Below are positions 1,891-42,995 of a stretch of 43,121 bases of DNA, one piece after another (the first letter of the stretch is position 1; every line of letters starts with the position of its first letter). The notes under the pieces were generated by a model. It was not told where the DNA came from, searched no databases, and saw nothing but the letters and a program-made list of their open reading frames with translations. The stretch spans positions 1 through 43,121 of the IMG/VR virus record IMGVR_UViG_3300045988_024784. One strand, written 5' to 3'. This DNA is from a virus. The translations under genes were made by a program, and so were the position numbers.

Positions 1891-3273
1891 TTACCCCTTT
1901 CTCCAAAATCCTATAATATCAATAATATAACGAGTGCTCGCCGGTACACCCCAAGCCTTAATCATACGGCTGTTTCGTTCAACATAAACACTATTGTTAT
2001 TTACATTAACGCTTTTTTCTATTAATCGTACAGAAACTGGCGAATTCGGTGGAAGCGATGCGACTACGTTACCATTACCGGAAGGGGCAGTTAATACAAA
2101 GTCAAAATGCAAGTACCCCCAACCAGTTAAGGGGTCGAATGCTAAATATCCTCTGTCCGCACCTCGTTCACCTGCTTTTGCCGTTCCCCAAACAACTTCA
2201 TATATTTCGACTGGTTGTGAAGTTACTTGTCCGCCACCGCTTCCAGGGTCGCCCTTTGGTCCTCTTAATGCGAGTAATTGTTCCGCGGTAAAGTCGGAAT
2301 ATTTAAAAGGCTCGCCTTTATCGCCTTTAGGTCCTTTAAGTGCGTTAAGTTGTTCTTGCGTAAAATCTGAATACTTAAACGGTTCCCCTTTAGGCCCTGG
2401 TGGTCCTGGTACCCCTTGCGGTCCTCGTTCGCCGTCCGCCCCACGTTGTCCAGGAGTTCCAGGTTCACCTTTAGGTCCTTTCAACTTTTCAATCTGTTCA
2501 GGGGTGAGCTGTACGCTTGAAGCCGATGTATATTGATTGATTTCGGCTTTCTTAACATAATCACTTAATTCAGATTTTTGAGCGAATGATTGTCCTTCAA
2601 TTTTATTAATGTAACGAGTACTAGCATCACCAGGAGTTAACGCATATTGAGCAATCTCGTTCTTCTTAATAAAAGTACCTAAATCATTCTTATAGGCGAA
2701 TGTTTGAGTAGCCCAACCCTTTTGAGCGTAATTATTTGTCGCATCTGTTTTAGATAAATAATCGTTTAACTCTGTTTTAAGCGCATATTTAGGGTCGCCT
2801 ATCATAGCGAGGTAATTTCTTATATCTACTTTTTTTAGATACAGATTGTCGGATTCTTGTTTAGTTGCATACGGCGATAAATCTACATTAGCACCAGTTC
2901 CAGGCGGTCCTGGTGGCCCTTGTTCACCTCTAGGGCCTTTTAAATTTTCTAATTGTTCTTGTGTGAACATATCATAAGTAAAAGGCTTTCCGTCTTTGCC
3001 AGGCGGCCCTTGTATACCCTGTTCGCCGTTTAGCCCATTTCGACCTGGATCGCCTTTAAGGCCGTTAACTCCATCTTTACCAGGAGGTCCAGGAGGGCCT
3101 TGAATACCTTGTATCCCTTGTTCACCGTCAACACCATTTCGACCAGGTTCGCCTGGAGGCCCAGGAGGACCTGGCGGCCCTGGGTCGCCTTTTGGGCCTT
3201 GTAGTTTAACGATTTGAGTATTGTCTTTAACTTTGATTACTTCCTTGTCTTCGTGAATATGTAGTTCGTCCAT
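1891..3273 (-). CDS. Collagen-like tail fibre protein
   Basis: There are several blocks of Gly-X-Y repeats (GPKGDPGPPGPPGPPGEPGRNG...). The module (K/E)PF(T/K)Y(D/S)(M/D)FT(Q/A)EQL.(N/A)L(K/R)GP(K/R)G is repeated, and there is a globular C-terminal domain. Confidence 0.85.
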   Translation of the reverse strand: MDELHIHEDKEVIKVKDNTQIVKLQGPKGDPGPPGPPGPPGEPGRNGVDGEQGIQGIQGPPGPPGKDGVNGLKGDPGRNGLNGEQGIQGPPGKDGKPFTYDMFTQEQLENLKGPRGEQGPPGPPGTGANVDLSPYATKQESDNLYLKKVDIRNYLAMIGDPKYALKTELNDYLSKTDATNNYAQKGWATQTFAYKNDLGTFIKKNEIAQYALTPGDASTRYINKIEGQSFAQKSELSDYVKKAEINQYTSASSVQLTPEQIEKLKGPKGEPGTPGQRGADGERGPQGVPGPPGPKGEPFKYSDFTQEQLNALKGPKGDKGEPFKYSDFTAEQLLALRGPKGDPGSGGGQVTSQPVEIYEVVWGTAKAGERGADRGYLAFDPLTGWGYLHFDFVLTAPSGNGNVVASLPPNSPVSVRLIEKSVNVNNNSVYVERNSRMIKAWGVPASTRYIIDIIGFWRKG

Positions 3274-3611
3274 TATTTCCCCCTATTACTAATACCTTCA
3301 ACTATATTAATCTGTCCTTTTACAAGACATTTAATAGGGTGATCGCCACTCCAAAGAAATAAGTCCCATTGATATTTACCGACTTCTAAAGCGCTTGTAT
3401 CAAGCGAAAGAGTGATTTTAGATGCCTCATCGCTTTCTAGCTCATCAGTAGATACACCAATATCAAACTTTGCTTTATAGTCTTCGTCCGGCGAATATTT
3501 ACGAACACAGGCGAACAGACTTTCGCTTGCAACAACATTGTTATAACCAATGTTAAGAGAAATCACTTCCCCTTTGATTGCATTAAAGTTGTGTGGGACT
3601 GGCAGTTTCAT
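3273..3611 (-). CDS. Hypothetical protein in the fibre region
   Basis: ORF tightly coupled to the collagen-like fibre gene (ATGA-type overlap at 3273). I recognise no motif. Confidence 0.6.
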   Translation of the reverse strand: MKLPVPHNFNAIKGEVISLNIGYNNVVASESLFACVRKYSPDEDYKAKFDIGVSTDELESDEASKITLSLDTSALEVGKYQWDLFLWSGDHPIKCLVKGQINIVEGISNRGK

Positions 3612-3747
3612 CTTCGTGTACCTCGTCCATTAAATCATTATGGATACAGCCCTCTGTTGGGCATGTTCCGTCTTCGTTAAGCACTTCCCAGCAGTACTCA
3701 CAGAATTCCATAACAGGTACTTTACTTTCTCCGATATATTTAGGCAT
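3583..3747 (-). CDS. Small Cys-rich protein (54 aa; CEYC...CPTEGC, zinc-ribbon-like), below the ORF-track cutoff
   Basis: My own translation is MPKYIGESKVPVMEFCEYCWEVLNEDGTCPTEGCIHNDLMDEVHEDETASPTQL. GGAGG lies 9 nt upstream, and the ATG is 1 nt after the stop of 3749-4141. Confidence 0.45.
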   Translation of the reverse strand: MPKYIGESKVPVMEFCEYCWEVLNEDGTCPTEGCIHNDLMDEVHEDETASPTQL

Positions 3748-3748
3748 A

Positions 3749-4141
3749 TTATTGTACCTCCTTAATACGAGTTACCATTTCGGTATTTAATTTGATATAT
3801 TGTGCGCTAATGGCTGCGGTAGGTTTGCCCATTAATAACAATCTGCGTTGAGCCTCTTCTAAGGATTTGAAGCGTGGCTCGTATTCAGATTTAATCGCGT
3901 TAATCTTATCTTCCTTTGTAGGAACATACGGAGCAGGCGCAACAAATTTGCCGTCTACATAGAATTTACCTTTCATAAATTCATCTAGCATGCTGTCGCC
4001 ATCTGCAGAGTAAATATAATCTGCTGCATCTGGCCATTCTTGTTTCGCAGTTGCTAACAACTGCTCTTGCGTTACTGTATTATCAACATAGGACGTAATT
4101 CGTTCGCCCATTTCGTTTAACACAAATACATATTGATTCAT
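3749..4141 (-). CDS. Hypothetical protein downstream of the variable fibre gene (fibre-assembly role possible)
   Basis: ORF with a plausible start. Its position resembles that of tail-fibre chaperones, but I recognise no diagnostic motif. Confidence 0.55.
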   Translation of the reverse strand: MNQYVFVLNEMGERITSYVDNTVTQEQLLATAKQEWPDAADYIYSADGDSMLDEFMKGKFYVDGKFVAPAPYVPTKEDKINAIKSEYEPRFKSLEEAQRRLLLMGKPTAAISAQYIKLNTEMVTRIKEVQ

Positions 4142-4167
4142 AGTCGTATCCTTTCGGAGGTGAAATT

Positions 4168-5013
4168 ATGCGCCGTTACGCTGTTATGCTAAAACGTAGA
4201 CAACGCAATACCATTACATTAAGGCAACTATTTAACGAGTGGCTGCCTATTCACTCTCAGTCTATTTCTGATAGTGCTGTTAATTCTTATCACATTGCTT
4301 TTAAACACATATCCAACATAGCGGATATGCCTATCACGGATATTCATTTTCAGCACCTTCAGAACGTGATTAATTCCATGCACGTAAAAGGACTTTCCTA
4401 CTCATCATGTAAGAAAGTCCGCACGTTACTTAATCAATTATTTAATTACGCAATCATTAAAGATTACCCCATCACTAATTACGCCTTACACTTAAATCTT
4501 GGCCCCAATATACCGACGATTCAGCGAAAAGTATTTACTCGCCAACAAATCAACAAATTATGGGCAATAGATACTTCTTATTCCCATATGATTTTAATAC
4601 TGCTCTACACCGGACTACGTATCGGTGAGCTACTTAATTTACGCGGGCAAGATATCAATAGACGATCATCATACCTTATCGTAAGACGCGCTAAAACAAA
4701 AGCGGGCGAGGGTCGTATCATCCCTATACATCGCCGCATCATGCCTATAATAGAGCAACTACATACTAGCGATTACCTATTCACTATCAGCTATACAACA
4801 TTCCGTAAACATTTCCGGGATATTATGAAGCATCTTAACTGCAAGCACACTATCCACGATACCAGGCACACATTCGCCAGTTTACTTGATGCGGTTGCGC
4901 CACCTAACACGTTACGCTCCTTACTAGGCCACAAACAAGGCGATATCACTACTAGGGTATACACGCATAAAACTATTCGTGAACTGCGTAAAACCGTAGA
5001 ATTATTAAAGTAA
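4168..5013 (+). CDS. Tyrosine site-specific recombinase, candidate fibre-cassette invertase (Rci-like role)
   Basis: Catalytic-type motifs are YTGLRIGELLNL (Arg), KTKAGEGRIIPI (Lys), HDTRHTFAS (HxxR), LLGH and RVYTH (Tyr). GGAGG lies 7 nt upstream of the ATG. It is the only plus-strand gene inside the late region, and its stop abuts crossover site 1. Confidence 0.9.
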   Translation: MRRYAVMLKRRQRNTITLRQLFNEWLPIHSQSISDSAVNSYHIAFKHISNIADMPITDIHFQHLQNVINSMHVKGLSYSSCKKVRTLLNQLFNYAIIKDYPITNYALHLNLGPNIPTIQRKVFTRQQINKLWAIDTSYSHMILILLYTGLRIGELLNLRGQDINRRSSYLIVRRAKTKAGEGRIIPIHRRIMPIIEQLHTSDYLFTISYTTFRKHFRDIMKHLNCKHTIHDTRHTFASLLDAVAPPNTLRSLLGHKQGDITTRVYTHKTIRELRKTVELLK

Positions 5014-5017
5014 CTCC

Positions 5018-5026
5018 CCAGTGGGG
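5018..5026 (+). repeat. Crossover site 1 (CCAGTGGGG core)
   Basis: The 9-bp core is shared with sites 2 and 3. It reads Q-W-G in the phase of cassette A. Confidence 0.7.
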
Positions 5027-5243
5027 GGCTGTTAATAACGTACCACAAAGCTCGTATATTAGTTATCCTATAGCATTTAGGACGGCGTTCAGCATCTCCG
5101 GTATCGATTTAAACATTGATGGGGACCCTTTAGTACTATCTATGTTCTTAACAGATAATACGAAATTTATGATAACTGGTCGACGCATACTCGGTGGTAG
5201 AAATAACCTATGGTGTCATTGGATAGCCGTTGGGATAGCTTAA
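5019..5243 (+). other. Silent tail-fibre C-terminal cassette A (74 codons plus stop, no start codon or RBS)
   Basis: Translation is QWGAVNNVPQSSYISYPIAFRTAFSISGIDLNIDGDPLVLSMFLTDNTKFMITGRRILGGRNNLWCHWIAVGIA*. It has the same QWG...YPIAF...WIAVG layout as the expressed fibre tip. Confidence 0.8.
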
Positions 5244-5256
5244 TATCCAGTGGGGA
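5244..5256 (+). repeat. Crossover site 2 (TATCCAGTGGGGA)
   Basis: This 13-mer is identical to the reverse complement of 5697-5709 inside the expressed fibre gene. Confidence 0.75.
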
Positions 5257-5481
5257 GCGTTTACTAACGTACCAATAGGAGGTACAATTTCATTCCCTGT
5301 TTCCTTTGATAGAGAGTGTTACGTAGTAGTTGGTAATGATATGAATGGTAACAATGTTGATAACCAGGTCCATTCGTTTAGAGAGCATACTAGAACAGGG
5401 GTTAAAGTATATTCTCAGGCGGCGAAAGATGGATTAAATAAAACTACGGCTTGGGGCAGATTTATCGCGGTAGGTAATTAG
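5248..5481 (+). other. Silent tail-fibre C-terminal cassette B (77 codons plus stop, no start codon)
   Basis: Translation is QWGAFTNVPIGGTISFPVSFDRECYVVVGNDMNGNNVDNQVHSFREHTRTGVKVYSQAAKDGLNKTTAWGRFIAVGN*. Its stop overlaps the stop of the expressed gene tail-to-tail. Confidence 0.8.
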
Positions 5482-6467
5482 ATAATTCCTAGTGCGAACC
5501 AGTAATAGGATGCGGCATATCTATCACTCGCCACAAATACAGCTTTTGTATTATTGCTTTCGCTTACAGAGTTTGCAAAATATCTAGGTGTATCAGAACC
5601 ACTCCAATACGCATCGATCGCATTTGCCATGAATAATCTTGTAAATCTAATAGGGAATGTTACTTCCGTTTTTGTGACATTATCTTGTCCGCCAGTTCCC
5701 CACTGGATAGTGAAACCATTAGCAAATTTAACAAAGCCCGCATTAGCGTCGAGCTTAGATGCCACGATAGCACCTTGGCCTAACAGGCTTTTAAGTGTAC
5801 CCAAGTTAAGCACTTTATTAATATCGTTATCGCTATAGTTAGAAGTAATGAAGTTAATAACTTCTTGTGAGTTATCGCCTTTTGTTACTTGCAAGCCTTG
5901 ATTATGTTTAGCGATTGCTTTTGCATATTGGTTTGAGGTAACGTCTAACTTTTTATTAAATGCGTCTTGATGTGCATTTGTAGCCGAATTATGCGCATCT
6001 AATGCAGCTTGCGTGATGTATAGTTGACTGTTAAGGTTGATTTTAACATTAACATCGTTACCAATATAAAAGGTTACAGTAATCAACTTTTCATCTAAAG
6101 ATGTACCAGCTGGGGTATAACTTGCTTGTGCTCCGGCGTTCGTATAAGCGAATAGCTTTTCCGTACCAGTATCACCAACTTTTGCAAATACCCCTAATTC
6201 ACGAGCATAAAAACCACTTGTAACGCTTGCATTAGAAATAGTCGCTACAACGTCGATTTCACCGTTTCCTCGACTGTTAATCGCCTGTACAGTATTCTGT
6301 GCCATAGGGTGCTTTAATGCTGTTAAAGTTTCAAGGCTTTCACTTTCGGTTAACGTGCCATCACCCAATGCAATTCGAGTAAAAATAAGTGGCTTTTTAG
6401 ATTTAATCGCCTCAACCAATAGATTGCTACCGGCTAAGGTCGGAATAATTTTATTGTAATTACTCAT
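5478..6467 (-). CDS. Tail fibre protein with a constant N-terminal part and a currently expressed variable C-terminal tip
   Basis: The N-terminus (IPTLAGSNLL...FTRIALGDG...) resembles the conserved N-terminal domain of P2 H / Mu S-type fibres. The C-terminus is IQWGTGG...VTFPIRF...YWFALGII. It follows the baseplate genes. Confidence 0.85.
   Translation of the reverse strand: MSNYNKIIPTLAGSNLLVEAIKSKKPLIFTRIALGDGTLTESESLETLTALKHPMAQNTVQAINSRGNGEIDVVATISNASVTSGFYARELGVFAKVGDTGTEKLFAYTNAGAQASYTPAGTSLDEKLITVTFYIGNDVNVKINLNSQLYITQAALDAHNSATNAHQDAFNKKLDVTSNQYAKAIAKHNQGLQVTKGDNSQEVINFITSNYSDNDINKVLNLGTLKSLLGQGAIVASKLDANAGFVKFANGFTIQWGTGGQDNVTKTEVTFPIRFTRLFMANAIDAYWSGSDTPRYFANSVSESNNTKAVFVASDRYAASYYWFALGII
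5697..5709 (-). repeat. Crossover site 3 (TATCCAGTGGGGA on the minus strand) inside the fibre CDS
   Basis: Plus strand reads TCCCCACTGGATA. It encodes I-Q-W-G at the boundary between the constant and variable parts. Confidence 0.75.
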
Positions 6468-6478
6468 GGTTCAACTCC

Positions 6479-7108
6479 TTAATAGTGTAAATTAATATTG
6501 CTTCTAATAGCGACTGCACCAACAGGGCAAGCATAAATTCCTCGTGCTGTAATTGATTTATCAGGCTTTTCTTGTGTGATGTAAATACGTTCGGTATTAG
6601 TTACCGCACCAACAGCAACAATCGGTCCTTTAGCGTTAAATTCATGTGCTATAGCATATGTCAAATGTGCCGGCTTATATACTTCGATTACATTTCGTAT
6701 CTCGTCTAAGGCGTCAGCCGTATCAAGAAGGACACTAAATCTATTAGGTCCGGTATTCTCTTTAACTACCGCACTACCAGGAGGATATACAAGGTTAATA
6801 AACTCTTGCAACTTGTTTTCGGTGATTGTTTGCGATCCTTGAATTTTGATTAATAAATAGGCCCGCCTATCATCAATAGATAAGTTGCGATTGTTTTCAA
6901 GTCCATATACTCGTTCCCAATCATCAAGACCCCAAGTTGCCGTTTCAACAAACAACTGCTTGCATATGTCGATAATCAATAAGCGTTGCTTTTCGTGTTC
7001 CTCGCTTAACGAGTCTTGCGTTCCTTTAAAGGTTTTATCCTTTGATAGGTACTTAGGCAAGTATCTTAGTACATCGACTTTATAAGTCCTTAAAAGGTTG
7101 AAAATCAT
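6479..7108 (-). CDS. Baseplate/tail protein, XkdU / Mu gp48-like (DUF2313-type)
   Basis: The WGLDDWERVYGL motif is present, and the gene sits directly after the baseplate J-like gene. Confidence 0.75.
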   Translation of the reverse strand: MIFNLLRTYKVDVLRYLPKYLSKDKTFKGTQDSLSEEHEKQRLLIIDICKQLFVETATWGLDDWERVYGLENNRNLSIDDRRAYLLIKIQGSQTITENKLQEFINLVYPPGSAVVKENTGPNRFSVLLDTADALDEIRNVIEVYKPAHLTYAIAHEFNAKGPIVAVGAVTNTERIYITQEKPDKSITARGIYACPVGAVAIRSNINLHY

Positions 7109-8560: not shown

Positions 8561-8979
8561 AATTTCACCACCTTTTGGTCTACATAATACAACTGCTCAC
8601 CTTGTGCATATACTGGGAATACTGTTACCTCATCACCTACTCGTAACGTATCAGTCATGATAATCGTATCGGTATAATCGTTATGAATTTCATGTGTATG
8701 ACTTTCGAATAAGGCCATACCGCCACCACCAGAGCGAGGTTGCGTTTCACTTATAATGTGCCCTTTTGCTTCCCTATAGTGGTCCGGCTTCCAGTAGTCA
8801 TTAAGATATATCTGTTCATTTGTAATGTCGATATTATCTACACGAATAACAAGGTTAGGGAATGGTGATGTAACAAGTCCAATTCGCATGCCCATTGGCT
8901 GTTCATCTTTGGCTATACCATGAATAGTATTAACCATTTTAGCCATAGAATGTGCAGCACTCGGAATATCTTTAGGCAT
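8557..8979 (-). CDS. Baseplate spike/plug protein (XkdR-like, DUF2577-type)
   Basis: Assigned by synteny and size, with translational coupling on both sides. Confidence 0.6.
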   Translation of the reverse strand: MPKDIPSAAHSMAKMVNTIHGIAKDEQPMGMRIGLVTSPFPNLVIRVDNIDITNEQIYLNDYWKPDHYREAKGHIISETQPRSGGGGMALFESHTHEIHNDYTDTIIMTDTLRVGDEVTVFPVYAQGEQLYYVDQKVVKL

Positions 8980-34824: not shown

Positions 34825-36357
34825 TTATTTGTTAGCTTCAGACATTAATTTGTTTACGAGTGCTTCAAGTTTAGAAATACGGCTTTGTGCATCTTTAGCT
34901 TCAGCGATGTAGTCACTGCCTTTACCGGTTTTGAATGCTACGTTTACGGTGTATTGGTTCTCACCACCTAACGTAGCACCAAAGCCAAGCATGATACGTT
35001 CATTAGGTCTAGCGAATACGCCGAGCGCTACTGCATTACTGTTACGGTAATGGCCGTAACTTACAGCGTAGCTGACCTTATCATTTCTGTTAAAGTCTAA
35101 TGGATGCAAGCCTGCAAGTGCTGCGGAGCCTGCCCCTAACTTGTTAACACGTTGGCCAAGATTGTTGACTTTGTTGTTAATGTCATTAGCCATGCTGGTA
35201 GAACGATGCTCCAAATCAGTAATGCGCCCTTCGTGGTTATCCGCTACCTTTTCAAGTACACGGATATCAGCTGTATTAGCAGTTACCTTTTGGCCAATGG
35301 AATTAATAGCAGATGTATTACCATTGATGCGGTTAGTGTTGTTGGCGATTGCAGTAGTATTGCCAGCGATAGCTTGTTCATGATCATTCACCACGTCGCC
35401 TAACATGTTCAAACCGATTGCCACATCTTTAATGTTTTGCTTGTTTTTGTTAATTTGTTTAGCGTTAGTTTCGATTTCATCAATCGCAGCGAACAGTTGG
35501 GAGCCGTTCACAGCGTCTAATGAATCAGCGGAGATTTGACCAGCGCTAACATTCGTGAGTTGGCGGTTGTACTGAGTTACTCCACCTGCACCTGCACGGG
35601 CTTTAGAACCAAAACTTACTACGCTTGCCGGTTGTTCACCAGCAAATACGTGCTTAGTGCCATTGATTGTGATGCCGTCAACACCAACGGCGCTATCTGT
35701 AACGCTGTTAGTACCGATTGCGACAGAATTTGCTTTATCAGCAATCGTGTTGTTACCAAATGCAACGGCGTCAGTGGCTAAGGATTTGGCATGAGTGCCG
35801 AATACGAGAGAGCCTTGGCCATTAGATTCAGAATTAGAACCGAACACTAGTTGCTCTTTGTCAGCCCCGATTTTATTGTTGTATCCTACAATGGCACTTT
35901 GGCCACCCGCCACAGTACCATTGTTAGCGCCGACAACCACAGTATCAGCGCTTGTAACATTATTAGTTCTGCCTAATACTACAGAAGATTCACCGGATAC
36001 GAAAGCACCGTTGCCGATAGCCACACTGTCGTAGCTAGACACACGAGCTTGATTACCGATTGCCACGGTGTATTCCACCAAGCTCTCAGCGTGAGAACCA
36101 AAGGCGAAGGAGTTACGACCTGCTGCAGTAGCATTATTGCCACCGGCGAAACCATTCTCACCGGTTACAGTATTGTTAGTACCGAACGCTAACGCATTAT
36201 TAGCGTCGATGTTGTTTTGGAAACCCCATACTGCAGAGCTTGTAGAAGTTGCGGAGATAGTATTATCTGTACCGCCTACTGTGTTATTACTAGTTGCGCC
36301 AACTACGTTTACTGCTAACGCGGAAATTGCAAGTGCTGTTGTTAATGTTTTATTCAT
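34825..36357 (-). CDS. Trimeric autotransporter adhesin (YadA-like head repeats, neck, coiled-coil stalk, beta-barrel anchor, short C-terminal coiled-coil extension)
   Basis: Signal peptide is MNKTLTTALAISALAVNVVGA. Head repeats follow the pattern A.G..N.V.G. The neck motif is RQLTNVSAGQISADSLDAVNGSQL. The anchor reads GAGSAALAGLHPLDF...YAVSYGHYRNSNAVALGVFARPNERIMLGFGATL...NVAFK. Confidence 0.9.
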   Translation of the reverse strand: MNKTLTTALAISALAVNVVGATSNNTVGGTDNTISATSTSSAVWGFQNNIDANNALAFGTNNTVTGENGFAGGNNATAAGRNSFAFGSHAESLVEYTVAIGNQARVSSYDSVAIGNGAFVSGESSVVLGRTNNVTSADTVVVGANNGTVAGGQSAIVGYNNKIGADKEQLVFGSNSESNGQGSLVFGTHAKSLATDAVAFGNNTIADKANSVAIGTNSVTDSAVGVDGITINGTKHVFAGEQPASVVSFGSKARAGAGGVTQYNRQLTNVSAGQISADSLDAVNGSQLFAAIDEIETNAKQINKNKQNIKDVAIGLNMLGDVVNDHEQAIAGNTTAIANNTNRINGNTSAINSIGQKVTANTADIRVLEKVADNHEGRITDLEHRSTSMANDINNKVNNLGQRVNKLGAGSAALAGLHPLDFNRNDKVSYAVSYGHYRNSNAVALGVFARPNERIMLGFGATLGGENQYTVNVAFKTGKGSDYIAEAKDAQSRISKLEALVNKLMSEANK

Positions 36358-40998: not shown

Positions 40999-41742
40999 AT
41001 GGATTTAAAAAAGCCAGAAAACAAAGGTGCTTTAACATCTAAAATAGCTGAACTTGCAAATAGCATAAGTACGTTTTTAAAAAATATACTGGATTCAGAC
41101 CAACACAAGGCGGCCCTGCTCTATTATTGGCTGCGTAATTATTTAAGATATATAAAACAAGAAGATACTTTTGACCCGAAGTATTTTCCGCAATTTAGAC
41201 CTGGTGACATAGTTAAAGTAGACTTCGGATTTGGGATAGGTTCTGAATTTGGTGGTCTGCATTATGCTATAGTACTGGCACCAAGTAATACTAAAAGCAG
41301 CACAGTCACTGTCGTCCCTCTAAGGTCTTTAAAGCCTAATAAAGAGAGCCCTAGTACCTTATATAAATCAGATGTTTATTTGGGGACAGAATTATTTACA
41401 GTCCTTCTGAATGAGTCCGGAAAGATGTTGGACAAATGTAGTGACTTTATAAAGGAAGTCGAAAGTACTGATCCAAAAACGATAACAGATAATGATATTA
41501 AACGTTTTGAAAAACAGCTAAAGGAAGCTAAAGGCCTAATTGCTAAGCACAATATAATTATGGAAGAGGTGTCGCGGTTAAACGCAGGCACGGTTGCTAT
41601 CGTCTCACAAATCAGGACTGTAAGCAAAATACGCATACAAAACCCTAGATATCCTAAAGATGCGCTTTATAATATGCGAGTAGATAGGCAGGCTACTGAT
41701 AAAATTCGAGCAGTTATGAAAGACTTATACAATATAAAGTAA
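40999..41742 (+). CDS. Atypical MazF/PemK-fold protein (N-terminal extension and internal helical insertion)
   Basis: RPGDIVKVDFGFGIGSEFGGLHYAIVLAPS...VTVVPL and VAIVSQIRTVSKIRI...DKIRAVMKDL match the two conserved halves of MazF/PemK toxins. About 70 residues separate the two halves. Confidence 0.65.
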   Translation: MDLKKPENKGALTSKIAELANSISTFLKNILDSDQHKAALLYYWLRNYLRYIKQEDTFDPKYFPQFRPGDIVKVDFGFGIGSEFGGLHYAIVLAPSNTKSSTVTVVPLRSLKPNKESPSTLYKSDVYLGTELFTVLLNESGKMLDKCSDFIKEVESTDPKTITDNDIKRFEKQLKEAKGLIAKHNIIMEEVSRLNAGTVAIVSQIRTVSKIRIQNPRYPKDALYNMRVDRQATDKIRAVMKDLYNIK

Positions 41743-41856: not shown

Positions 41857-41900
41857 AGATGAGGTCTTGTTCTTATGGAACAGGACCTCATCTTTTTTTG
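41857..41900 (+). terminator. Strong rho-independent terminator just upstream of the integrase start
   Basis: AGATGAGGTCTTGTTC pairs with GAACAGGACCTCATCT (about 16 bp including one G-U) around a 5-nt loop, followed by TTTTTTT. Confidence 0.8.
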
Positions 41901-41921
41901 TTTATTATAAGGATTGAAGAT

Positions 41922-42995
41922 ATGGCTAAAAAACGAACCGATGGACGCTACCAGGTATCAAAGACGATAAACGGTAAGCGTAAATACTTTTATGGTACTA
42001 CCAAGAAAGCTGCTATTGCTGAACGTGATGCCTACGTTGAATCACTAACACAATGTGCTAACTACGATAATACAATTACGATTGAGAGATGGTGCGGGTA
42101 TTGGATCCGACTTAAGAAGGATACGATTTCACAAAATACCCTCTCCTCTTATCAATATATTATTAAAACCTATATTGTACCTTTCATAGGCTCGATACGA
42201 TTAGTTGAGCTATCAGCATTAAACGTACGAGCTTTAATGGATAGCATAAGCCACTTATCGGCGCGGACTATCAGCTACACACTAACCGTTCTTAGGGCTA
42301 TCCTTAAACAGGCGGTCATGGATGAGATAATATCGAAGAACGTGGCCACGTTAGTCAAGAAACCCAAACAAGAGCGTAAGCGAGAGATGGTAACATTATC
42401 CAAGGAAGAAGTAGAAACCTTCCTTGAGCAAATCGATGATGTCGAATGGCGTGCCCTGTTTAAGCTCGCATTTACTACAGGTTTACGCCGTAGCGAGATA
42501 CTCGGTTTAACCTGGGATGATGTCAATCTTAAACAAAGGATATTAACCGTCAATCAGACAGTTTTACGTATCGATGAAGTCACAACTATCTCTAAAACAA
42601 CTAAAAACAGCTCGTCTAGGCGTTCTATCTCACTCGACGATAAAACTATCGCGGAACTCCTAAAACTTCGCACACACGTCGATAAACGAAGATTAAAATC
42701 AACGAACTGGAGAAATAATAATCTCGTATTCCCCGGTAAGTTTGGAAATCCTCGTGATCCAGCTAAGGTTTCACTAAAATGCAAAAAATTGGCCACCGCA
42801 ATCGGTAGACCTGACTTTACGATGCACGATACTCGTCATACACACGCTACCTTATTATTGGAAGCAGGTGTAAACTTTAAAGTCGTACAGATGAGGCTTG
42901 GCCACTCCTCGTACCAACAAACGATGGACACCTACTCTCACGTTACTCCGATTATGGAAGCCGATGTAGTAGAAAAGATTTCAAGCATATTCTAA
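41922..42995 (+). CDS. int: Tyrosine integrase. The start is moved to ATG 41922.
   Basis: Catalytic-type motifs are TGLRRSEILGL, HDTRHTHATLLL, LGHSS and DTYSH. The ORF-track start at 41859 lies inside the terminator stem. The gene is next to the right att repeat. Confidence 0.9.
   Translation: MAKKRTDGRYQVSKTINGKRKYFYGTTKKAAIAERDAYVESLTQCANYDNTITIERWCGYWIRLKKDTISQNTLSSYQYIIKTYIVPFIGSIRLVELSALNVRALMDSISHLSARTISYTLTVLRAILKQAVMDEIISKNVATLVKKPKQERKREMVTLSKEEVETFLEQIDDVEWRALFKLAFTTGLRRSEILGLTWDDVNLKQRILTVNQTVLRIDEVTTISKTTKNSSSRRSISLDDKTIAELLKLRTHVDKRRLKSTNWRNNNLVFPGKFGNPRDPAKVSLKCKKLATAIGRPDFTMHDTRHTHATLLLEAGVNFKVVQMRLGHSSYQQTMDTYSHVTPIMEADVVEKISSIF

Follow-up and report, generated by a model that had tools for sequence, protein, structure and literature searches.

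A probable DNA-inversion shufflon for tail-fiber tips in a temperate, contractile-tailed Veillonella phage

The stretch of DNA considered here, referred to throughout as the window, encompasses positions 1-43,121 of the IMG/VR virus record IMGVR_UViG_3300045988_024784, read as a single strand; all coordinates are window positions. It belongs to a temperate Veillonella phage with a contractile tail, and prophages that match its recombinase gene are found in Veillonella parvula, V. dispar, metagenome-assembled genomes (MAGs) of Veillonella, and the complete genome of V. parvula UTDB1-3 (L034; NZ_CP019721), in which a shufflon with two cassettes occupies approximately 1,097,470-1,098,000 of the genome record. 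The subject of this report is the region between 4168 and 6467, a candidate shufflon that contains a tail-fiber gene, two stop-free frames on the opposite strand, three copies of a short repeat, and a gene for a tyrosine recombinase, arranged as follows.

4168-5013, plus strand: tyrosine recombinase gene (281 aa), convergent with the fiber gene; its TAA stop codon (5011-5013) lies 4 nucleotides before the core of site 1
5013-5031, plus strand: site 1, with its core (5018-5026) in the near-palindrome CTCCCCAGTGGGGGG; adjoins the recombinase gene
5019-5240, stop codon 5241-5243, plus strand: silent cassette A, 74 codons, starting QWG, without a start codon
5244-5256, plus strand: site 2, the 13-mer TATCCAGTGGGGA, with its core at 5247-5255; left breakpoint of the inversion between the window and the related locus L001
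5248-5478, stop codon 5479-5481, plus strand: silent cassette B, 77 codons, without a start codon
5478-5705, minus strand: tip C, expressed; the last 75 codons of the fiber, from QWG to the stop
5697-5709, minus strand: site 3, the reverse complement of the 13-mer, at fiber codons I-Q-W-G; inverted with respect to sites 1 and 2; right breakpoint of the window/L001 inversion
5478-6467, minus strand: fiber gene, 329 aa, of which the constant part takes up 254 codons
5710-6467, minus strand: constant N-terminal part of the fiber, some 252-254 codons; PF12571; PHROG 7037 'tail fiber protein' (2.5e-42)

The 13-mer is found twice in the window, against an expectation of 0.04. The 9-bp core, CCAGTGGGG, is found at 5018-5026 and 5247-5255 on the plus strand and at 5698-5706 on the minus strand, and nowhere else in the 43,121 bp; these three matches, all within 700 bp, compare with 0.15 expected, and three were reached in none of 100 shuffles. 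A first-pass annotation, made from the letters of the sequence, had described the repeats at these positions, the division of the fiber into a 254-codon constant part and a 75-codon tip, the two start-less frames in the phase of the fiber, and a recombinase gene whose stop codon abuts site 1, and each of these elements was confirmed. The frames of cassettes A and B and of the fiber gene share the codon phase CAG TGG GGN. Cassettes A and B do share sequence, over 28 nucleotides with 86% identity, and TAACGTACCA forms part of this stretch. Cassette B and tip C lie tail to tail, with stop codons that overlap (5478-5481). For want of a start codon, the spare tips are overlooked by automatic annotation, and the sole open reading frame (ORF) called within the silent cassettes of the window is an internal fragment of 46 aa. 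The fiber gene itself follows genes for baseplate J and a Mu gp48-like protein, and its constant N-terminal part attaches the fiber to the baseplate.

The recombinase is composed of a SAM-like core-binding domain and a catalytic domain. It matches PF00589 over residues 123-269 (72.1 bits against a cut-off of 27.1; 6e-20), PF14659, and PHROG 1 'integrase' (1.5e-54). The profile matches begin at around residue 12-30, at the core-binding domain, and the enzyme is without an arm-binding domain. Its best solved relatives are the XerC-like protein 4a8e and XerA (5hxy), and its layout is Xer-like; NCBIfam gave sub-threshold Xer-type matches only. The catalytic residues, assigned by motif and not by structural alignment, are R151 (TGLRIGE), K176/K178, H230-x-x-R233 (HDTRH), H255 (LGH), and Y265 (VYTH), and they are invariant in homologues down to 47% identity. 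In a tblastn search against phages and plasmids, the nearest annotated relatives are around 27-34% identical and are ordinary integrases that adjoin repressor and lysis genes in Fusobacterium, Butyrivibrio, and Clostridium phages; they therefore do not represent the same module. A profile scan of IMG/VR for distant relatives of the recombinase returned, among the 80 loci kept, only relatives that are at least 89% identical. The earlier description of this enzyme as the only recombinase nearby holds locally, but the window harbors a second one in its lysogeny module:

41859-42995, plus strand: integrase, 378 aa; second tyrosine recombinase of the window, with an N-terminal extension of its own

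The two proteins are 22% identical. With a separate integrase at hand, the idea that the 281-aa enzyme serves as the prophage integrase was rejected.

All three tips match the Pfam family Gp53-like_C (PF21882), with 38.0 bits for C, 36.7 for B, and 26.3 for A at a gathering score of 24.9; in the fiber, the match covers residues 247-327. Pairwise identity among the tips is only 27-30%. Cassette A, the weakest of the three Pfam matches, gave an all-beta AlphaFold model (mean pLDDT 84.4), for which the best Foldseek match was the fiber tip of gp53 from the Acinetobacter phage AP22 (4mtm; TM-score 0.80, root-mean-square deviation 2.3 Å), followed by the C-terminal feet of the R1 and R2 pyocin fibers (TM-score around 0.7) and, lower down, by H-type lectins. 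The Foldseek E-values are weak (best 8.6e-3), as expected for a domain of 74 residues, and the TM-scores and Pfam are concordant. A search of the fiber sequence against solved structures returned nothing, and the relation to fiber feet came from Pfam and the fold search. The profile and structure check that had been suggested for the tips thus identifies them as fiber 'foot' domains. The likeness to the AP22 and R-type pyocin feet (4mtm, 6ct8, 6cl6, 6cl5, 6cxb) lies in the fold of the swapped unit and in PF21882; the difference is that identity is only about 20-22% and that those fibers are not known to be switched by inversion. From the fold relation to the pyocin and AP22 feet and to lectins, the tips probably differ in receptor and may bind different surface glycans or lipopolysaccharide variants. 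A protein search with cassette A returned only two short proteins, which is consistent with a tip that is mostly silent and uncalled.

The inversion that the arrangement predicts is found ready-made in related phages. With the fiber constant part as the query, 28 close IMG/VR loci were fetched. In L001, which comes from a phage 94-98% identical, a constant part with 98% identity to that of the window continues in frame into tip B (98.6% identical), followed by tip C on the opposite strand. When the window is aligned with L001 by blastn, the segment 5244-5707 is inverted and both flanks are collinear, so the breakpoints are the two 13-mers. The same is seen in two further pairs: L015 and L013 differ by the inversion of a 516-bp segment that is 100% identical, with a fiber-side flank of 99.9% identity and a recombinase-side flank of 91.5%, and V. 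parvula UTDB1-3 (L034) and the V. parvula MAG L031 likewise carry a 100%-identical 516-bp segment in opposite orientations, here between flanks that are both 99.0-99.3% identical. Tip C is silent and inverted in L001, L013, L029, L031, and others. The left flank of site 1 (..AATAACTCC) is found joined to tips of every type in other genomes.

A metagenome scan for the junction GGYTTCACTATCCAGTGGGG brought in at least 120 contigs, and the module-bearing loci, pooled, give at least 171 distinct junctions and at least 123 complete shufflons. By number of cassettes, the complete shufflons among the loci listed divide into 40 with two, 70 with three, and 13 with four. Tip types number at least five, namely A (74 aa), B (77), C (75), D (79), and E (76), with others besides, and in the listed loci every type is expressed in some genome. 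Tip C is the one expressed at 87 of the 171 junctions listed, followed by B at 31, D at 28, A at 6, and E at 5; a further 10 express another type, and at the remaining 4 the frame is broken. The cassette set {B,C,D} occurs, in the loci listed, in exactly the four predicted isomers (17, 13, 3, and 1 times) and in no other order; for the set {C,E,D}, all four predicted isomers are likewise present. Among sets with an A-type cassette, L135 has the order of the window, and L080 (A>C>B<) and L055 (A>B>) have A fused to the constant part. The in-frame fusion of cassettes B and A that had been predicted is thus borne out, for B in L001 and for A-type tips in the related phages L030, L055, and L080; a scan of viral contigs for the junction of constant part and A in the exact phage of the window gave 0 matches.

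Two short assemblies have palindromic joins. L044 (1191 bp) reads constant-D>A>C>B<-constant', and L142:1-542 reads constant(24 nt)-C>-D<-constant'. An assembly yields such joins only when its reads support two different tips beside the constant part, and the two contigs are assembly chimeras of the kind expected when one sample holds two isomers. In the same vein, among 74 IMG/VR contigs with the recombinase, 26 end within 1.1 kb past the recombinase-proximal core, six of these at or within a few nucleotides of that core, and 8 end in the next 2.4 kb, so that breaks are around 7-fold commoner inside the shufflon. These within-assembly signals are supportive rather than decisive, because co-existing strains could produce them too. 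The content of the shufflon also varies: at the place of cassette A in the window (5018-5243), L001 (4222-4509) has one of D type (79 aa, QWGLTWF...), and cassettes are therefore also exchanged between phages, beyond inversion.

The recombinase gene accompanies these cassettes closely. Among the matches listed, it is present and convergent with the fiber gene in 56 of the 61 metagenome loci that have more than 2.2 kb downstream of the junction, and in all 74 of the 74 loci in which it is seen it lies on the strand opposite to the fiber, 0.46-1.06 kb from the junction. Twelve relatives are without the module, the cassettes included; their fiber constant part is 93-95% identical in eleven cases and 56% in one (L017). 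They encode IQWG as AT(T/C) CAA TGG GG, and because of this CAA they have no core. In every module-bearing locus, IQWG is written ATC CAG TGG GG. The late genes of the window phage prefer CAA to CAG as the glutamine codon (143 vs 42).

A Veillonella MAG, L036 (4037-4453), has four intact cassettes and four cores beside a recombinase gene with an internal deletion, of which some 417 nucleotides matching residues 1-43 and 160-281 are left. Either this shufflon is locked or the assembly is at fault.

The proposal that the repeats are a mere shared coding motif was rejected, since the core is kept at synonymous positions only with the recombinase. Over 224 unique site contexts, no variation is seen in the T at position -3 or in core positions 1-8, CCAGTGGG; the ninth is G, rarely T, and the next base is mostly A. 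In a sister lineage (L018/L019), the recombinase is 47% identical and 308-316 aa long, and the core at the same point of the fiber is CCAAGGGGG, which differs from CCAGTGGGG solely in its two central bases (AG in place of GT). The site there, ACCAAGGGGGAAA, lies at fiber codons I-Q-G-G, and another copy abuts the stop codon of the recombinase gene. Enzyme and site thus co-vary. The sister shufflon (L018:3821-4577; L019:4851-5307) serves a fiber of 354 aa or 692 aa and has one or two spare cassettes, one of which, in L018, is in direct orientation.

A natural marker places the crossover within the core. The variant core CCAGTGGGT stays with cassette E, being recombinase-proximal in L033 and at the fiber in L032, and the two bases to the left of the core remain with the left context. 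As the variant core travels with its cassette, strand exchange must fall within CCAGTGGG. In tyrosine recombinases, the overlap region is typically 6-8 bp, and exchange within CCAGTGGG fits this size. The cleavage sites would accordingly be expected inside the core.

The cassettes are maintained as functional sequences. In the loci listed, 428 of 434 are intact over at least 60 codons. Pairwise ratios of nonsynonymous to synonymous substitution rates (dN/dS) are 0.06-0.20 for every tip type (0.17 for A), and silent copies equal fused ones; these equally low values indicate that silent copies are expressed often enough to stay functional. The suggestion that the frames are decayed remnants, which the first-pass annotation had singled out for a check in homologous prophages, was rejected on these figures.

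We consider that the locus is a site-specific DNA-inversion shufflon of this temperate contractile-tailed Veillonella phage, with a probability of about 0.88. The predicted switch is supported by the natural isomers, by the domain and fold of the silent frames, and by the linkage of cassettes, cores, and recombinase. The 281-aa recombinase, which comparison of the loci marks as the probable catalyst, would pair the site of around 13 bp inside the fiber gene (5697-5709) with the oppositely oriented site at 5244-5256 or that at 5018-5026; strands would be exchanged within the invariant core, and the intervening DNA would flip. As the distal foot domain starts, in its first strand, with the Q-W-G that the core specifies, flips would swap the last 75 or so codons in frame and seamlessly. 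A flip would put cassette B or A in place of tip C, with the following predicted junctions.

Constant part plus B: ...TTCACTAT, then the core CCAGTGGGG, then AGCGTTTAC
Constant part plus A: the constant part, then GGCTGTTAA

With sites 1 and 2 facing one way, site 3 facing the other, and B and C paired tail to tail without an intervening site, there would be four DNA isomers (C>B<A<, B>C<A<, A>B>C<, and A>C>B<) and three versions of the fiber, with tips C, B, and A. The three-state switch that had been proposed therefore stands as regards expression, but not as regards the DNA, for which there are four states. A lysogen population and the virions released from it would be a mixture of receptor specificities, a hedge against variation of the Veillonella surface. 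On the analogy of gin in Mu, low-level expression of the recombinase in the lysogen is probable, so that induced virions would be mixed. Late transcription would run antisense through the gene, and switching may take place mainly in the prophage state.

A number of points weigh against this interpretation. The isomers come from different samples and strains and not from one clonal lysogen, and most of them differ by some point mutations. The recombinase appears tied to the sites through comparison rather than biochemistry. Sites 1 and 2 are direct repeats, between which an ordinary tyrosine recombinase would also delete cassette A; the number of cassettes among relatives, 2-4, neither demonstrates nor excludes such deletion. 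Tip C is expressed at about half of the junctions (87 of 171), which may reflect slow or biased switching. A scan for promoter and terminator consensus sequences gave counts at chance level and no signal for the recombinase gene. Finally, four loci (L054, L099, L112, and L119) carry the core in the fiber gene with no recombinase in the 2.7-9.7 kb downstream, from which it follows that the core can persist without the module, perhaps after module loss. In these four, the constant part is 35-54% identical, the junction GGYTTCACTATCCAGTGGGG is exact, and there is a single C-like tip (61% identical).

Of the competing explanations, the one that fares best, although we hold it to be quite unlikely, accepts the inversions and assigns them to another catalyst, which might be the phage integrase at 41859-42995, an enzyme of the host, or a recombinase supplied by a co-resident prophage. 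The window does harbor that second tyrosine recombinase, L036 keeps its four cassettes intact despite a deleted recombinase gene, and the core is shared by several Veillonella prophages, which makes action in trans conceivable. The 281-aa gene is nevertheless adjacent and convergent in the 56 of 61 matched loci listed above, is missing from exactly those close relatives that have neither cassettes nor core, and, in its divergent lineage, goes with a divergent core; the integrase, in contrast, sits in the lysogeny module, has its own N-terminal extension, and is 22% identical. It is very improbable that the locus is instead a static mosaic, in which the frames are leftovers of fiber-gene exchange and the differences between genomes arose by rare homologous or illegitimate recombination between strains. 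Such an account could draw on the fact that isomers were compared across different samples and that cassette content varies by strain, with A in the window and a D-type in L001, which shows that ordinary recombination also acts. It fits poorly with the intactness of 428 of 434 cassettes and the low dN/dS of silent copies, with breakpoints that fall always exactly at a 9-bp core, too short for RecA, with 100%-identical inverted segments between 99%-identical flanks, with the finding in the loci listed of all four predicted isomers of a set and no others, and with the mixing of isomers inside single assemblies. That the cassettes are separate small genes, such as fiber-associated lectins or decoys expressed alone, with repeats that are shared coding motifs, can practically be discarded: each cassette, at 74-79 residues, makes up one complete fold unit, and gene callers sometimes call short ORFs in the cassettes, but the frames begin at the core without a start codon or ribosome-binding site, the only ORF called in the window is the internal fragment, other genomes have in-frame fusions of every type to the constant part, and the core is kept at the DNA level, at synonymous positions, only where the recombinase is present.

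Within the recombinase gene there is a hairpin on the late-operon strand (4420 to 4390, minus strand), with a 12-bp stem and a 7-nucleotide loop, followed by TTTTACGT. It overlaps the recombinase codons G-L-S-Y-S-S-C-K-K-V, a peptide that is invariant even at 47% identity. Over 13 unique variants, the stem forms 11.8 of 12 pairs on the antisense strand vs 11.0 on the other, owing to G-U pairs, and synonymous changes cluster in the loop, for which there are six variants; in the L018/L019 lineage a hairpin is retained, although the codons that form it differ. One possible role is that of a terminator or stability element of late transcripts reading antisense into the recombinase gene; an equal possibility is that the hairpin simply follows from the conservation of the peptide. 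An Rfam scan of 3500-6700 found nothing.

The first-pass annotation had left it in doubt whether such an arrangement was already known. In principle it has been described, as the Rin shufflon of prophages of Bifidobacterium breve and B. longum (Mavrich et al. 2018, PMC6109161) and of clade 1 prophages of Eggerthella lenta (PMC8778435, 2022), in which an armless tyrosine invertase acts on a locus with a constant N-terminal receptor-binding part and several C-terminal cassettes. This is the closest published system, and the Veillonella module shares its design. In both, a phage-encoded armless tyrosine recombinase adjoins the locus of the receptor-binding protein, with a separate canonical integrase elsewhere; a constant N-terminal part is combined with several C-terminal cassettes that have no start codon; a short asymmetric repeat precedes each cassette and recurs within the expressed gene, a layout that holds here for at least 123 related loci too; comparison of genomes reveals inversion isomers, those reported here coming from different genomes or assemblies; and the avoidance of deletion at direct sites is a puzzle. 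The comparison is one of architecture, the recombinases being set side by side by description and not by sequence.

The differences from Rin concern the host, the virion, and the site. The host here is a diderm Negativicute rather than an actinobacterium, and the phage is contractile-tailed with a Mu/P2-like baseplate, whereas Rin serves a siphovirus tail tip. The swapped unit is a Gp53-like_C foot of 74-79 residues, as against a TP901-1-like or H-type-lectin head, and two cassettes of the window lie tail to tail with overlapping stops. The core here is CCAGTGGGG, whereas the Rin crossover site, rix, is TTCCCTAACCC; no copy of rix is present in the locus, and a single one-mismatch match at 8852 is at chance level.

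The first-pass annotation had called the enzyme Rci-like, after the shufflon of plasmid R64. The logic is indeed that of the R64/IncI1 Rci-sfx-PilV system, in which a tyrosine recombinase, encoded next to the shufflon as here, swaps the C-termini of one adhesin behind a constant N-terminus by multiple inversions. The enzyme, by contrast, is only 25% identical to R64 Rci (NC_005014; 44.7 bits over 253 aa), which is no closer than to the integrase of the same phage (22%), and no IncI plasmids are among the tblastn matches of the recombinase in PLSDB at E ≤ 1e-3. Rci is 384 aa long with a C-terminal extension, 103 aa more than the 281-aa enzyme, which is without it. The sfx site is 19 bp long with a 7-bp core and differs from the site found here. 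Furthermore, the R64 target is the tip adhesin of a conjugative pilus and not a phage fiber, and rci is co-oriented with pilV, whereas the recombinase gene is convergent with the fiber gene.

In the long-known switches of Mu (Gin, G segment), P1 (Cin, C segment), p15B (Min), and e14 (Pin), inversion also swaps the receptor-binding C-terminus of a myovirus fiber, and Min, as here, has several cassettes. These enzymes are serine recombinases, in contrast to the tyrosine recombinase of the window, in which no serine recombinase or resolvase-type domain was found among 28 ORFs scanned against Pfam. The serine-invertase switches use an enhancer bound by Fis. The invertible segments of Mu and P1 also carry a gene for a tip-specific assembly chaperone (U/U'), whereas here the moving part is limited to the tip of about 75 codons and orf130, the next gene downstream, keeps its place.

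In a survey of programmed inversions, tail-fiber genes were enriched among the targets and tyrosine recombinases among the neighbors, with Veillonella unmentioned (PMC9881135), and in full-text open-access papers and preprints we found no published description for Veillonella phages. The principle is therefore already published; what is new is the Veillonella/Negativicutes host and the contractile-tailed phage. Variant features are the tip-only cassettes of around 75 codons, the tail-to-tail pair, and the position of the core in a conserved strand of a myovirus fiber foot. With more doubt than conviction, we also entertain the idea of an independently evolved lineage of phage tyrosine invertases, derived from Xer- or integrase-like enzymes of Bacillota and Fusobacteria phages and not from Rin or Rci. 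Enzyme and core would in that case co-evolve (CCAGTGGGG vs CCAAGGGGG), the module would be a mobile accessory unit of 0.5-1.1 kb for any fiber ending in ..ANGF(T)IQWG, and expression may be coupled to late transcription by way of the antisense-strand hairpin in the recombinase gene.

Changes of host range in gut and oral phages are usually ascribed to mutation, diversity-generating retroelements, or gene exchange. A very common family of Veillonella prophages, with at least 171 distinct loci in public human metagenomes, would possess in addition a compact, reversible foot switch of three to four states. Tyrosine-recombinase shufflons, described in siphoviruses of actinobacteria, would thereby gain a counterpart in contractile-tailed phages whose host is a diderm genus of Bacillota. 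In practical terms, assemblies break or turn chimeric at the shufflon, and a host range or receptor predicted from one assembled fiber captures only one of several states. In the papers considered here, the host-range role of tyrosine-recombinase shufflons is called putative or likely and is not demonstrated. If the reading is true, and with V. parvula being culturable, the phage would provide a workable model in a human commensal for a shufflon of this kind that changes host range. The small cassettes, the defined crossover, and the isomers in a completely sequenced strain would make a convenient test of the preference of an armless enzyme for inversion over deletion, and the system could also reveal which Veillonella surface structures are recognized by the five or more tip types.

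As for the wider family, the fiber protein has more than 3,600 database relatives, and in the best 120 of these identity never falls below 93%; these 120 derive from metagenome contigs, of which many measure around 43 kb. A human-gut assembly (L160; run SRR1916411, assembly ERZ915664) encodes an identical fiber protein in the local gene order of the window. A blastn search of the locus against 50,697 GenBank phage records gave zero matches, and hence no cultured phage among them carries the module.

The remainder of the window is that of an ordinary temperate phage in outline. By Pfam and PHROG, the minus-strand late operon runs through terminase, portal, sheath, tape measure, baseplate J, and Mu gp48-like genes to the fiber, beyond which come the shufflon module, orf130, orf112, a collagen-like second fiber, a holin-like gene, and the endolysin; the shufflon recombinase is the sole plus-strand gene within this late region. 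The plus-strand lysogeny module contains a helix-turn-helix repressor, an ImmA-like protein, a protein with a PemK-like domain, and the 378-aa integrase. Two features of the late region that adjoin the module are the following.

3749-4141, minus strand: orf130, 130 aa; no Pfam match, PHROG of unknown function
1891-3273, minus strand: collagen-repeat second fiber, 460 aa, after orf130

Among relatives, orf130 is 54-98% identical, compared with 93-98% for the fiber constant part and the gp48-like protein, and in module-less relatives it lies directly 3' of the fiber gene; it may be a fiber assembly factor. The PemK/MazF-like toxin domain of the lysogeny module belongs to a 247-aa protein (40999-41742, plus strand) whose gene adjoins that of the integrase. 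Among the replication genes, 34825-36357 on the minus strand encodes a 510-aa YadA-like trimeric autotransporter adhesin with head-repeat, stalk, and membrane-anchor domains, which may be a lysogenic-conversion gene that affects the adhesion of Veillonella.

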